Shown piece after piece: positions 4,820 through 56,798 of a stretch of DNA of 64,000 bases. Position numbers and translations under genes: made by a program. This stretch comes from Escherichia coli (GTDB taxonomy: Bacteria > Pseudomonadota > Gammaproteobacteria > Enterobacterales > Enterobacteriaceae), in the NCBI RefSeq assembly GCF_002854065.1, contig NZ_CP024147.1; one strand, given 5' to 3'. The stretch's first letter is position 1. Every line of letters begins with the position of its first letter. Below the pieces are notes generated by a model. The model was not told the origin of the DNA. It saw only the letters and a list, made by a program, of their open reading frames with translations, and did no database searches.

Positions 4820-6832
4820 ATGGCTATGTCAGACGAGGCGATGTTTGCCCCGCCACAAGGAATAACAATTGAAGCGGTAAACGGAATGCTCGCGGAGCGG
4901 TTAGCACAGAAACACGGCAAGGCGTCTTTATTACGCGCCTTCATCCCGCTGCCGCCGCCGTTCAGCCCGGTACAACTTATTGAACTGCATGTTCTCAAAA
5001 GCAACTTCTATTACCGCTACCATGATGATGGCAGCGATGTGACGGCAACAGTAGAGTATCAGGGCGAGATGGTCGATTATTCGCGTCACGCCGTCCTTCT
5101 CGGCAGTAGAGGAATGGCGGAGCTACGCTTTATACGTACCCACGGCAGCCGTTTTACTCCCCAGGATTGCACACTGTTTAACTGGCTGGCACGCATTATC
5201 ACCCCGGTTCTGCAATCATGGCTCAATGATGAAGAACAACAGGTGGCGCTGCGTTTGCTGAAGAAAGATTGCGATCATCATCGGGTACTGGTGGATATCA
5301 CTAATGCAGTGCTGTCACATCTTGATCTCGACGATCTGATCGCTGACGTCGCTCGTGAGATCCATCATTTTTTCGGTCTGGCTTCAGTCAGTATGGTACT
5401 GGGCGATCATCGAAAGAACGAGAAGTTCAGCCTGTGGTGCAGCGATCTTTCTGCCTCACATTGTGCGTGTCTGCCACGCAATATGCCTGGCGACAGTGTA
5501 TTGCTGACACAAACGCTACAAACCCGACAACCGACCTTGACGCACCGTGCAGACGATCTGTTTCTCTGGCAACGCGACCCGTTATTACACTTACTTGCAT
5601 CTAACGGCTGCGAATCTGCGCTCCTTATACCGCTTACCTTTGGCAACCATACACCGGGTGCATTGTTGCTGGCGCATACCTCTTCCACTCTCTTTAGTGA
5701 GGAAAACTGCCAGCTACTACAACACATAGCCGATCGCATCGCTATTGCCGTTGGCAATGCCGATGCCTGGCGTAGCATGACCGATTTGCAGGAAAGTTTG
5801 CAGCAAGAAAACCACCAGCTTAGCGAGCAGCTCCTTTCGAATCTGGGCGTCGGTGACATTATCTATCAAAGCCAGGCAATGGAAGACCTGCTCCAGCAGG
5901 TAGATATTGTGGCGAGGAGCGACAGTACGGTGTTGATTTGCGGTGAAACCGGAACTGGCAAAGAGGTGATCGCCAGAGCGATCCATCAACTTAGCCCGCG
6001 ACGCGACAAGCCGCTGGTCAAAATCAACTGCGCTGCCATCCCCGCCAGTCTTCTGGAAAGTGAGTTATTCGGTCATGACAAAGGGGCGTTTACTGGTGCG
6101 ATTAATACCCATCGTGGTCGTTTTGAAATTGCCGATGGCGGCACGTTGTTTCTCGATGAAATTGGCGATCTGCCGTTAGAACTTCAGCCTAAACTGCTGC
6201 GCGTATTGCAGGAGCGGGAGATTGAGCGTCTCGGCGGGAGTAGAACGATCCCGGTGAATGTCAGAGTCATTGCCGCCACCAACCGTGATTTGTGGCAAAT
6301 GGTTGAAGATCGCCAGTTTCGCAGCGATCTCTTTTATCGCCTGAATGTCTTCCCACTGGAATTGCCGCCGCTACGCGACCGTCCGGAAGATATCCCTCTT
6401 TTAGCAAAACATTTCACGCAAAAAATGGCGCGCCATATGAATCGCGCAATTGACGCCATCCCGACCGAGGCACTACGCCAGTTGATGTCGTGGGATTGGC
6501 CGGGCAACGTGCGCGAGCTGGAAAACGTGATTGAGCGGGCGGTACTGCTGACTCGCGGTAACAGTCTGAATTTACATCTAAATGTCCGACAAAGCCGTTT
6601 ACTGCCGACGCTAAATGAAGATTCAGCGCTTCGCAGTTCAATGGCGCAGTTGCTGCACCCGACGACGCCAGAGAATGACGAAGAAGAACGTCAGCGCATT
6701 GTTCAGGTATTGCGAGAAACCAATGGCATTGTTGCCGGGCCCCGTGGCGCGGCGACACGATTAGGGATGAAGCGCACCACGCTGCTGTCACGAATGCAGC
6801 GTCTGGGGATCTCGGTTCGCGAGGTGTTGTAA
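4820..6832 (+). CDS. hyfR: Sigma-54-dependent transcriptional activator HyfR (FhlA-like)
   Basis: 670 aa from second Met; AAA+ sigma-54 interaction motifs ([14 protein letters not shown]) and C-terminal HTH. Confidence 0.9.
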
Positions 6833-7739: not shown

Positions 7740-8801
7740 TTATTCTTGCGCTATTTGCCCATCGGGCCAGGCGTGGATCACGGCTTTGATCAGCGTCGCC
7801 AGTGGAATGGCGAAGAATACGCCCCAGAATCCCCACAAACCACCGAAGATCACCACCGATAAAATAATCACCAGCGGATGCAGGTTAACCGCTTCGGAGA
7901 ACAACACCGGTACTAACAGGTTGCCGTCCAGCGCCTGAATAATCAGATACACTGCGAAGCAGCTCCAGAATTCCGTGCCTGCACCAAACTGGAATAGCGC
8001 CACGCCAACCACCGGAATGGTCACCACAAATGCGCCAATGTACGGAATAAGTACCGAGAAGCCGACCAGCACCGCCAGCAGCAGCGAATAGTTCAGCCCA
8101 AAGAGCAAGAACCCCAGCCAGGTGGCGATCCCCACCACGATCATCTCCAGCACTTTGCCGCGGATATAGTTGGTGATTTGTTGATTCATCTCCTTCCACA
8201 CCTGTCCTGCCAGTCCACGGTTACGCGGCAGCACCCGGCGAACGGCATTCAGCATCTGCTCTTTGTCTTTCAGCAGGAAGAAGACCATCAATGGCACCAG
8301 CACCAGATAGACAGCTATGGTCAGCAAACCGACCAGCGAGGCGAGGGAAATTTTCACCACCGAATCGCCCATGGTCAGCATCCGACTGCGCATATTTTCG
8401 GCCATTGCATCAATAATGCCCGCATCCATTAACGCCGGATAGCGGCGCGGCAACGTGGCGGCAAAGTCAGAAAGCTTATTGAGCATCCCCGGCATATCGC
8501 GGATTAAGTAGATGCCCTGTTGCCAGGCGATAGGCAGTACCACGAACGCCATCAGTAGCAATATACCGACAAAAACCACCAATACAATCGACGTCGCCCA
8601 GCGGCGGGAGCAGCCAATAGATTGCAGGCGCACGGTTGGCCATTCCAGCAAATAGGCCAGCACAATAGCCACCAGCAACGGAGCAAGCAGGCCACTAAAG
8701 AAAAAGATAATGCCAAATCCGGCAACTAAAATAACCAGCAAGGCAATCGCTTCCGGGTCGCTAAAACGGCGGCGATACCATTGCATCAACATTTCGAGCA
8801 T
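7740..8801 (-). CDS. perM: Putative permease PerM (YfgO; AI-2E transporter family)
   Basis: 353 aa membrane protein, convergent with focB. Confidence 0.85.
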   Translation of the reverse strand: MLEMLMQWYRRRFSDPEAIALLVILVAGFGIIFFFSGLLAPLLVAIVLAYLLEWPTVRLQSIGCSRRWATSIVLVVFVGILLLMAFVVLPIAWQQGIYLIRDMPGMLNKLSDFAATLPRRYPALMDAGIIDAMAENMRSRMLTMGDSVVKISLASLVGLLTIAVYLVLVPLMVFFLLKDKEQMLNAVRRVLPRNRGLAGQVWKEMNQQITNYIRGKVLEMIVVGIATWLGFLLFGLNYSLLLAVLVGFSVLIPYIGAFVVTIPVVGVALFQFGAGTEFWSCFAVYLIIQALDGNLLVPVLFSEAVNLHPLVIILSVVIFGGLWGFWGVFFAIPLATLIKAVIHAWPDGQIAQE

Positions 8802-55615: not shown

Positions 55616-55631
55616 GCTTTTTACAGGCAAT

Positions 55632-55660
55632 AAAAAACCGCCGAATTTGGCGGTTTTTTA
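55632..55660. terminator. Bidirectional Rho-independent terminator (sseA on + strand; candidate antisense sRNA on - strand)
   Basis: AAAAAA-CCGCC-gaattt-GGCGG-TTTTTT, with runs on both sides. Confidence 0.75.
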
Positions 55661-55731
55661 TTGCTGGTCTGGTTCGCGGCCTTTCCAGCAGGTTGACTTG
55701 TGTTGCCGGAGCAACGCAGGCACCCCACAGT
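55635..55731 (-). ncRNA. Candidate divergent antisense sRNA, copy 1 (RyfB/TimR-like)
   Basis: TTGACA -35 on the - strand (55761-55766) with a weak -10; predicted 5' end falls on a 16 nt core (55717-55732) whose complement matches the ryfA-like 5' region (55879-55894); bounded by the bidirectional terminator. Confidence 0.35.
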
Positions 55732-55812
55732 GTTGAAATACTCTCTTTTATGCCTGGCTGTGTCAAGATAATAAACAGAGTAATTATTCAAACATGAGAG
55801 TATTATTCTTAA

Positions 55813-56116
55813 TGGCCCTTTTCGCCGTCTCGCAAACGGGCGCTGGCTTTAGGAAAGGATGTTCCATGACCGTAAATACAGGCACCCCACAGTGCTTGCT
55901 ATCGCGGCAATATCGCCAGTGGTGCTGTCGTGATGCGGTCTTCGCATGGACCGCACAATGAAGATACGGTGCTTCTGTATCGTACTTATTGTTTCTGGTG
56001 CGCTGTTAACCGAGGTAAATAATAACCTGAGTCTCTCCGGCAACAATTTACTGGTGGTTAACAACCTTCAGAACAGCAGGTAAGCCCGAATGCCGCCCTT
56101 TGGGGCGGCATATTTA
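55813..56116 (+). ncRNA. ryfA: ryfA-like transcript, copy 1 (putative type I toxin mRNA)
   Basis: TATTAT -10-like box at 55801-55806; strong hairpin terminator GCCGCCC-ttt-GGGGCGGC plus T run at 56092-56116; span about 304 nt. Confidence 0.5.
55958..56083 (+). CDS. Small hydrophobic protein (41 aa, MKIRCFCIVLIVSGALLTEVNNN...), candidate type I toxin (TimP-like), copy 1
   Basis: ATG overlaps by ATGA the stop of an upstream 31-codon ORF (55866..55961) that has an ideal SD (AGGAAAGG, 7 nt spacing); N-terminal 17-residue hydrophobic segment; stop 8 nt before the terminator hairpin. Confidence 0.45.
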   Translation: MKIRCFCIVLIVSGALLTEVNNNLSLSGNNLLVVNNLQNSR

Positions 56117-56314
56117 GATTATCCGATTCTGTTTAAAGTCACGCAAAAAACCACCCCAGCGACGTTCATAGAATGGCGCAATATGTTCGATATTAAAATG
56201 ACCTGGCTTATTAGTCCGAATTCAGACAAATATAAACAAATCCCGCTCAATATTAAAAATACTAACCGGTAAAAGATATTACTTAAACATGTAAATTCAC
56301 TTTCTTTAAGCAAC

Positions 56315-56345
56315 AAAAAACCGCCAAAATCAGGCGGTTATTTGT
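56315..56345. terminator. Bidirectional hairpin terminator, copy 2 of the repeat unit
   Basis: AAAAAA-CCGCC-aaaatca-GGCGG-TTATTTGTT. Confidence 0.6.
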
Positions 56346-56414
56346 TGCCGGTTTGGTTCGCGGCCTCTCCAGCAGATTGACTTGTGTTGCATGAGCAACG
56401 CAGGTGCTTCACAG
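56318..56414 (-). ncRNA. Candidate divergent antisense sRNA, copy 2 (RyfB/TimR-like)
   Basis: Conserved TTGACA -35 on the - strand (56445-56450), AATATT -10-like box about 18 bp downstream; 5' core 56401-56415 matches 56560-56574 in the copy-2 ryfA-like 5' region. Confidence 0.35.
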
Positions 56415-56494
56415 CAGAGCAATATTCGCCAGCAACTCTCTTTTTGTCAAGCAAAAGAGAGTAATTATTGTTTATTTAGCGTATTATCGACACC

Positions 56495-56798
56495 GGCCCT
56501 TTCCGCCGTCTCGCAAACGGGCGCTGGCTTTAGGAAAGGATGTTCCGTGGCCGTAAATGCAGGTGTTTCACAGCGCTTGCTATCGCGGCAATATCGCCAG
56601 TGGTGCTGTCGTGATGCGGTCTTCGCATGGACCGCACAATGAAGATACGGTGCTTTTGTATCGTACTTATTGTTTCTGGTGCGCTGTTAACCGAGGTAAA
56701 TAATAACCTGAGTCTCTCCGGCAACAATTTACTGGTGGTTAACAACCTTCAGAACAGCAGGTAAGCCCGAATGCCGCCCTTTGGGGCGGCATATTTTA
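56495..56798 (+). ncRNA. ryfA: ryfA-like transcript, copy 2
   Basis: Same architecture as copy 1; terminator hairpin 56773-56790 with a T run overlapping the sseB stop codon. Confidence 0.5.
56639..56764 (+). CDS. Small hydrophobic protein (41 aa), candidate type I toxin, copy 2
   Basis: Identical protein to copy 1 (single synonymous difference TTC to TTT); preceded by a GTG-initiated 31-codon ORF (56547..56642) with the same SD and ATGA overlap. Confidence 0.45.
   Translation: MKIRCFCIVLIVSGALLTEVNNNLSLSGNNLLVVNNLQNSR

Follow-up and report, generated by a model that had tools for sequence, protein, structure and literature searches.

We analyzed a stretch of 64,000 nucleotides (nt) from Escherichia coli (contig NZ_CP024147.1 of assembly GCF_002854065.1), referred to here as the window, and focused on the locus between sseA and sseB. 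This region very probably contains the timPR (ryfA/ryfB) type I toxin-antitoxin module twice in tandem, with one small RNA (sRNA) per copy that is matched to its own mRNA. Both the two-module arrangement and the idea of copy-specific regulation are already known from Shigella dysenteriae, for which they were published in 2017: tandem ryfA1 and ryfA2 genes are each accompanied by a divergent upstream transcript of ∼100 nt seen by RNA-seq, ryfB1 and ryfB2 (PMC5333039). A preliminary description of the window, made from the sequence alone, had proposed two separate pairs of antisense sRNA and toxin mRNA, which is borne out by the ryfA and TimP matches, the divergent units, and the literature on RyfB1.

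The locus reads sseA, TimR1 (-), timP1/ryfA1 (+), an sseB fragment, IS128, TimR2 (-), timP2/ryfA2 (+), and sseB, with sseA and sseB flanking the timPR genes on either side. An Rfam search returned two ryfA RNAs, both on the + strand and spanning model positions 1-296 (RF00126, 315.7 and 313.8 bits; gathering score, 80), and both timP coding sequences (CDSs) match the NCBIfam model of TimP (NF040796, 77.7 bits; cut-off, 45). Over its 1.3 kb, the region shows 100% identity to that of the uropathogenic E. coli (UPEC) strain EC1515, for which RefSeq annotates sseA, timP, an sseB 3′ fragment (pseudogene), timP, and sseB, with one protein accession covering both timP genes. Alignment of the two units showed that they are nearly identical from stem-loop 3 (SL3) of the mRNA onward. 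Only 14 of 305 positions differ between the timP1 and timP2 RNAs, 6 of which fall within the 16-nt site facing the sRNA (Fisher p = 1.8e-5).

This site and the 5′ end of the sRNA gene form a direct repeat that is specific to each copy. In the first copy, CAGGCACCCCACAGTG is present exactly twice in the window, both times on the + strand (55717-55732 and 55879-55894), and none of 100 shuffled sequences gave such a match. In the second copy, GCAGGTGYTTCACAGC, that is, GCAGGTG(C/T)TTCACAGC, has exactly two occurrences in the 64 kb, at 56400-56415 (with C) and 56559-56574 (with T), where 0.01 were expected. Since the repeats are direct on the + strand, an RNA transcribed leftward through the upstream copy would be the complement of what the + strand RNA carries at the downstream copy. 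The TimR1 seed and the timP1 site form 16/16 Watson-Crick pairs, and the site at 55879-55894 takes in the 5′ arm and loop of SL2 together with 3 nt of its 3′ arm. In the second copy, the match grows to 20 nt if G·U pairs are allowed (56397-56416 versus 56556-56575; 17 Watson-Crick and 3 G·U). Both core pairs thus lie at the positions given in the preliminary description and are unique to their own units in the window, and each sRNA matches its own mRNA as that description had anticipated. The features of the locus are listed in Table 1.

Table 1. Features of the tandem timPR locus, in order of window position (SL, stem-loop; uORF, upstream open reading frame)
Feature	Positions	Strand	Basis or remark
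TimR1 (RyfB1-type) antitoxin sRNA, about 102 nt	55631..55732	-	5′ end equals RyfB1 primer of Fris 2017; 8-sequence alignment
Bidirectional intrinsic terminator, AAAAAACCGCC-GAATTT-GGCGGTTTTTT	55632..55659	both	Common to sseA (+) and TimR1 (-); read from sequence
TimR1 seed, reverse complement of CAGGCACCCCACAGTG	55717..55732	-	16 Watson-Crick pairs with timP1
TimR1 predicted promoter	55738..55766	-	-35 TTGACA 55761-55766, 17-nt spacer, -10 GAGTAT 55738-55743
timP1 mRNA (ryfA1)	55812..56116	+	RF00126, 315.7 bits, full length
uORF of copy 1, 31 codons	55866..55961	+	ATG start; stop TGA overlaps timP1 ATG
timP1 SL2 (CAGGCAC-CCCACA-GUGCUUG)	55879..55898	+	Rfam structure line; Salmonella TimR site is SL2
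timP1 CDS, 41 amino acids	55958..56083	+	RefSeq annotation of EC1515; NF040796, 77.7 bits
sseB 3′ fragment, duplicated (pseudogene), end of first repeat unit	56114..56200	-	RefSeq annotation
IS128 element between modules	56147..56357	+	Rfam RF00125, 227 bits
TimR2 (RyfB2-type) antitoxin sRNA, about 102 nt	56314..56415	-	TimR1 homology; terminator; RyfB2 transcript in Shigella
TimR2 terminator	56339-56319	-	Terminator scan
TimR2 seed region	56397..56416	-	Complementary to timP2 56556-56575
Second shared stretch, GCAATATTCGCCAG	56419..56432	.	Overlaps the -10 box and spacer of TimR2; roughly -4 to -17 relative to predicted start (~56415)
TimR2 predicted promoter	56421..56450	-	TTGACA 56445-56450, 18-nt spacer, AATATT 56421-56426; 10/12 consensus matches
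timP2 mRNA (ryfA2)	56493..56797	+	RF00126, 313.8 bits
uORF of copy 2	56547-56642	+	GTG start; stop overlaps timP start codon
timP2 SL2 holding the TimR2 site	56556-56579	+	Pairing and RF00126
timP2 CDS	56639-56764	+	RefSeq annotation of EC1515; NF040796

Sequence features place upstream of each timP a divergent sRNA gene that has its own predicted promoter and intrinsic terminator and does not overlap timP. The minus-strand TTGACA noted in the preliminary description was found in both copies and is kept in all aligned units. The same description had predicted a start on the core, and the RyfB1 cloning primer (Fris 2017) begins CACTGTGGGGTGCCTG, which is the reverse complement of 55717-55732; the predicted TimR1 start therefore agrees with the RNA-seq-based 5′ end of RyfB1. 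A terminator closes each unit about 100 nt past the start, as had also been expected, and the hairpin of copy 1 is bidirectional. This hairpin was missed by the terminator scan because its A/T runs lengthen the stem. It is missing in E. albertii (L018 ~1285-1300) and E. marmotae (L016 ~1355-1372), apparently by deletion between two T-runs, and E. albertii keeps the timR promoter and seed.

From its 5′ end, TimR1 reads as a seed, a short stem-loop, a body stem that is conserved, and the terminator. When eight TimR sequences of Escherichia and Citrobacter were aligned, the same order emerged: the 5′ seed varies, the stem-loop after it shows two compensatory pairs, the body is strongly conserved, and the terminator closes the RNA. 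The body segment GGAAAGGCCGCGAACC and its flanking stem (55665-55690 and 56348-56373, minus strand) are almost invariant in these two genera, next to a variable seed, and this segment may be a protein-binding or stability element. No Rfam family reaches its threshold on TimR, and no TimR/RyfB family appeared at a relaxed threshold either. We also considered TimR1 (55629-55757, minus strand) as a member of the sraL or AgrB family, for which it scored below threshold (32.2 versus 39 bits and 30.7 versus 40 bits, respectively). TimR2 gives neither match, even sub-threshold, and we treat the resemblance as one of shape and terminator, not of membership.

The function of such modules has been worked out in Salmonella, where ryfA encodes the toxin TimP and TimR pairs with its mRNA's 5′ untranslated region (UTR), as proven by compensatory mutations and in vitro translation (PMC7667032). 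There, TimR binds SL2 and destabilizes an SL1-SL3 pseudoknot that is needed for translation (PMC11228461). In the window, each + strand mRNA of ~305 nt encodes the same 41-amino-acid membrane toxin TimP and is preceded by a predicted divergent TimR1 or TimR2 of ~100 nt, whose first 16 to 20 nt are complementary to the 5′ arm and loop of SL2 in the 5′ UTR of its own mRNA. By analogy with Salmonella, pairing would open SL2 and destabilize the SL1-SL3 pseudoknot required for translation initiation, so that no TimP is made. Given that the two modules differ almost only in the seed/site pair, each antitoxin would prefer its own mRNA. Repression of timP by TimR pairing and toxicity of overexpressed TimP would carry over from Salmonella to both window modules, and we infer that the modules are expressed and repressed in the window strain and that TimR2 is specific for its own target in turn. 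As candidate elements of the pseudoknot, CGCUGGC (SL1) and GCCAGUG (SL3), assigned from the text of PMC11228461 only, can form 7 pairs and are invariant in both copies.

To compare cognate with non-cognate pairing, we computed site-restricted hybrid energies, to which we added the cost of opening both partners, as well as dimer partition functions. Folding of the full-length duplexes was discarded, as it gave meaningless, all-intermolecular structures of -66 to -74 kcal/mol. For TimR1, hybrid plus opening energies amounted to -11.4 kcal/mol with timP1 and +4.1 kcal/mol with timP2, and for TimR2 to -8.1 kcal/mol with timP2 and +9.6 kcal/mol with timP1. The dimer partition functions gave binding energies of -16.8 and -19.9 kcal/mol for the cognate pairs versus -8.6 and -11.4 kcal/mol for the non-cognate ones. 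The computed preference for the cognate partner is thus 12-18 kcal/mol by the first measure and about 8 kcal/mol by the second, and duplex prediction, one of the checks suggested beforehand, favors the cognate pairs (-8 to -11 versus +4 to +10 kcal/mol).

The basis of this preference lies in five core differences, all of them transitions, which change the mRNA from CACCC to UGUUU and face the TimR seed cores GGGUG (TimR1) and AAGCA (TimR2). The divergence of the core seems limited to transitions because the 5′ arm of SL2 has to remain paired to a 3′ arm, GYGCUUG, that hardly varies; in the one case where A-U became G-C, the compensating change lies within the SL2 hairpin. The two non-cognate pairs are affected to different degrees. 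TimR2 meets 4 true mismatches on timP1 (hybrid energy, -15.0 kcal/mol), whereas TimR1 on timP2 retains, over 16 positions, 10 Watson-Crick pairs, 5 consecutive G·U pairs opposite the seed GGGUG, and only 1 mismatch (-25.8 kcal/mol). The earlier statement that each sRNA is mismatched to the sibling mRNA therefore holds for TimR2 against timP1, while TimR1 against timP2 is mostly a matter of wobble pairs. Discrimination is predicted to be strong for TimR2 versus timP1, with its true mismatches, and weaker for TimR1 versus timP2, where the differences turn into G·U wobbles.

Several points weigh against this reading of the locus. Given the continuous helix with five G·U pairs, some cross-repression of timP2 may occur at high TimR1 levels. 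The only published specificity test, in which RyfB1 overproduction lowered RyfA1 and left RyfA2 unchanged, was one-directional and followed RNA abundance only (PMC5333039). Since Salmonella TimR acts mainly on translation (PMC7667032), a weak cross-repression of timP2 by TimR1 could have gone along with that result. Furthermore, the toxins of both modules are identical, so that the benefit of insulation is not evident. RyfA was described as acting as a regulatory RNA by two groups working on E. coli and Shigella, who detected no peptide. Finally, the promoter of TimR1 is not in the list of the consensus scan, because its -10 box GAGTAT is weak and matches at only 3/6 positions. The insulation suggested in the preliminary description is not a new implication, having been proposed and half-tested in 2017, when RyfB1 lowered RyfA1 and not RyfA2.

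In an alternative reading, insulation is partial and one-way: TimR1 would repress both timP1 and, through a G·U-rich duplex, timP2, and TimR2 only timP2, resulting in a hierarchy instead of two independent circuits. It fits with the exclusive use of transitions, which places G·U pairs opposite the TimR1 seed and leaves a hybrid of -25.8 kcal/mol, with the SL2 loop part CACA common to both mRNAs, and with the sole experiment having gauged RNA level and not translation. However, the TimR1-timP2 pair is unfavorable once the opening cost is included, in contrast to the cognate pair, and RyfA2 abundance did not respond to RyfB1 overproduction (PMC5333039). We therefore consider a one-way hierarchy rather unlikely and prefer the reading of two modules with cognate pairing.

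The preliminary description had pointed to a second stretch shared between the upstream segment and the mRNA of copy 2. This stretch is real: GCAATATTCGCCAG at 56419-56432 is a near-copy of the SL3 segment GCAATATCGCCAG at 56588-56600, and the match is not by chance. The segment GCAATATCGCCAG is also found in the mRNA of copy 1 (55907-55919), and a search of the window gave no upstream counterpart in that copy. The upstream stretch is probably not transcribed as part of TimR2, as it overlaps the predicted -10 box and lies upstream of the start; we read it as promoter sequence that is probably left over from the duplication that gave rise to the antisense gene. A related sequence, CAATACTCGCCAG, is kept in the promoters of type-2 and type-3 timR genes (types are defined below). 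One could instead imagine that TimR2 has a longer isoform, with a start upstream of the -35 box, which includes CUGGCGAAUAUUGC and also pairs with the pseudoknot-forming SL3 element GCCAGUG. The non-random match, which includes a complement to the SL3 loop (a loop able to form 7 bp with CGCUGGC of SL1), and the retention of CAATACTCGCCAG in two types of units speak for such an isoform. Yet the only good minus-strand promoter sets the start at ~56415, downstream of the stretch, the Shigella transcripts are ~100 nt long (PMC5333039), copy 1 lacks the stretch, and its conservation is accounted for by its role as -10 box and spacer, which makes the longer isoform highly unlikely.

A further part of the preliminary description had to be corrected. 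The start codon that it assigned to a leader opens a uORF, which in both copies overlaps the timP start with its stop codon. Fris et al. fused green fluorescent protein to exactly this ATG in Shigella and saw no translation (PMC5333039), and the AUG of the Salmonella uORF, which overlaps the TimR site, is dispensable for timP translation (PMC11228461). The uORF is long in E. coli, reaching an ATGA overlap with the timP start, and short in Salmonella as published.

We extended the comparison to further units. A strict scan of genome contigs for the SL4 pattern gave six loci from Escherichia and Citrobacter only, and the comparison holds no Salmonella, Klebsiella, or Serratia units; a protein search for TimP found matches in Escherichia and Shigella only. 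The units fall into five core types, each of which is matched within its own unit by 14-16 Watson-Crick pairs with 0 mismatches over 16 positions, while pairs across types in the fetched loci have 1-5 mismatches. The co-variation that the preliminary description had named as a check is thus present in Escherichia and Citrobacter. In E. coli strain GF4-3 (L021 2040-3900), three intact timR-timP units of types T1, T2, and T3 lie in tandem, their toxin-coding parts nearly identical, and each seed matches only its own SL2 site. That seed and site co-vary over five core types while the rest of TimR is conserved, that GF4-3 combines three near-identical toxin bodies with three distinct and matched seed/site pairs, that the transcripts were observed in Shigella (PMC5333039), and that pairing was proven by compensatory mutations in Salmonella (PMC7667032) largely refutes the idea, now scarcely credible, that the repeats are mere duplication scars, that the upstream segments have no antisense function in E. 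coli, and that RyfA works as a non-coding regulator, even if GCAATAT(T)CGCCAG looks like vestigial homology in a promoter and studies in Shigella, UPEC, and avian pathogenic E. coli call RyfA an sRNA, with little timR-deletion phenotype and no peptide detected.

The E. coli units were assigned to three core classes: T1 (CAGGCACCCCACAGUG; window copy 1, O157, and E. albertii), T2 (GCAGGUGUUUCACAGC; window copy 2, CFT073, and ETEC1701), and T3 (GCAAGCGCGUCUCAGCG; UM146, WP7, and E. whittamii). Approximate numbers of genomes with at least 95% identity to the ~210-nt unit were 572 for T1, 470 for T2, and 2979 for T3, with a further 1594 genomes at the same identity for a K-12-type unit, in which a T3 timR lies beside a T2 timP; these are counts within an identity band and not a typing of each genome. 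The window junction is found at ≥99% identity in at least 40 genomes. Counting two-copy genomes with a junction query was confounded by the joining of single-copy pieces, and we used instead the excess of timP-body places, which, at 5601 places among 5425 genomes, points to about 176 additional timP copies. A count of timR copies with an 89-nt query was uninformative, the second copy having no exact word of 28 nt. Strain WP7 additionally has a distal orphan timR-like gene beside sseA (L012 412-500), with a fourth seed (GACGAGAUACACUUGCAG) and a shortened stem, for which the locus showed no timP site that matches.

The K-12-type unit initially looked like a mismatched natural recombinant. This was ruled out by the alignment, which revealed in K-12 MG1655 and TOP10 a second, intact-looking timR of type T2 beside sseA, behind which lie a timP promoter, the initial ~17 nt of timP, and IS128. 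In MG1655, the distal timR is at L014 300-395 and the adjacent one at 625-715, and the arrangement is likewise present in L008. Over the 16-nt core, the distal timR (T2 seed) forms 14 Watson-Crick and 2 G·U pairs with K-12 timP and no mismatch, which equals the cognate type-2 pair. The adjacent timR (T3 seed) has 2 mismatches and 3 G·U pairs over 20 positions, with intermediate computed energies of -3.4 to -5.8 kcal/mol. The distal junction occurs at ≥99% identity in 1612 genomes, about the same number as the proximal unit (about 1600/5426 complete genomes). Hence about 30% of complete genomes, K-12 included, seem to combine a single timP with two timR genes, of which the distal one is the matched cognate and the adjacent one a near-match. 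Deleting the adjacent timR alone would leave the matched distal gene in place, which could explain weak timR phenotypes.

In three lineages, ~160 bp between the direct-repeat cores are deleted: E. coli 06-00048 (L013 ~1207-1290), Citrobacter amalonaticus (L004 ~8090-8130), and E. marmotae (L016 1360-1450). The deletion joins the body of timR and the 3′ half of SL2 in timP, with loss of both promoters and SL1. The repeats that mediate antisense control thus appear to act also as substrates for module loss.

The IS128 element between the modules overlaps with parts of the repeat unit. The hairpin at its 3′ end is antisense to the terminator of TimR2, and the 5′ end of the element spans the duplicated sseB tail, suggesting that the "IS128 RNA" model covers parts of the timPR repeat unit.

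Taken together, these data are compatible with a broader, still tentative picture, in which timPR in E. coli is a small paralogous array with up to three orthogonal specificities, of which different lineages kept different subsets through recombination. In this picture, the ryfA "alleles" (pathogen-associated ryfA1-like versus ryfA2-like) would be retained paralogs, ~30% of the genomes would carry two TimR per timP, and TimR1 would have a one-way wobble leak toward timP2. No part of this picture came up in the literature searched, where RyfB2 is mentioned only by Fris 2017. The three putatively orthogonal specificities, the two K-12 antitoxin genes, the apparent recurrent deletion between direct repeats, and the corrections given above may be new. 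The practical value of the two-module finding is modest: for knock-outs and reporters of timR or ryfA in E. coli, the specificity type and copy number of the strain matter. The three matched specificities also offer a natural minimal test set for studying how an antisense RNA is re-targeted by a change of 5 nt without unfolding of the hairpin that it targets.

Related arrangements are known from other toxin families. The Ibs/Sib and ZorO-OrzO/ZorP-OrzP systems of E. coli likewise consist of paralogous toxin/sRNA pairs in tandem, and each sRNA is directed to its own mRNA by short differences in the seed; the Zor/Orz sRNAs are encoded divergently and do not overlap their targets, while the Sib RNAs are true cis-antisense RNAs. 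In dinQ-agrA/agrB, one toxin gene is accompanied by two related divergent sRNAs, one of which is the better match. The latter resembles the K-12-type order timR-timR-timP and not the window, and homology is not shown, the AgrB match to TimR1 being sub-threshold. Ibs/Sib and Zor/Orz differ from timPR in having unrelated toxins and another mechanism of inhibition, as timP would be silenced through disruption of a pseudoknot; zorO-orzO was already cited in Fris 2017 (PMC5333039).

Closer to the window modules is timP/TimR of Salmonella (PMC7667032, PMC11228461, PMC13000454), which shares a homologous toxin, the mRNA fold SL1-SL4, and the divergent sRNA. There, SL2 is the pairing site for the 5′ end of the sRNA and lies a long way upstream of the ribosome binding site; putative elements of the SL1-SL3 pseudoknot are seen in both window copies. 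For every enterobacterial timP examined in one of these studies, the opposite strand upstream bears a complementary sequence with a terminator (PMC7667032). Salmonella differs in having one module and a short uORF, in contrast to the uORF that reaches the ATGA overlap here.

The closest system is ryfA1/B1 and ryfA2/B2 of S. dysenteriae, which has the same locus and arrangement; the parallel to both TimR/TimP and RyfB/RyfA drawn in the preliminary description is thus upheld. The basis of specificity was also stated there, as RyfB1 and RyfA1 are complementary at 16/18 positions overlapping a "five-nucleotide variable region" (PMC5333039). The ryfA2 probe of that study matches window copy 2 without any difference, the pRyfA1 reverse primer (Fris 2017) falls in the IS128/TimR2 terminator, and the ryfA1 core (CAGGCCCCCC) is one base off window copy 1. 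As a result, the TimR1-timP1 pair is perfect in E. coli (16/16) and has one mismatch in Shigella. Fris 2017 treated RyfA as non-coding, and the function of RyfB2 and the reciprocal test were outside that study. Our analysis re-derives this published system from the sequence and shows that EC1515-like E. coli share the two-module arrangement of S. dysenteriae.

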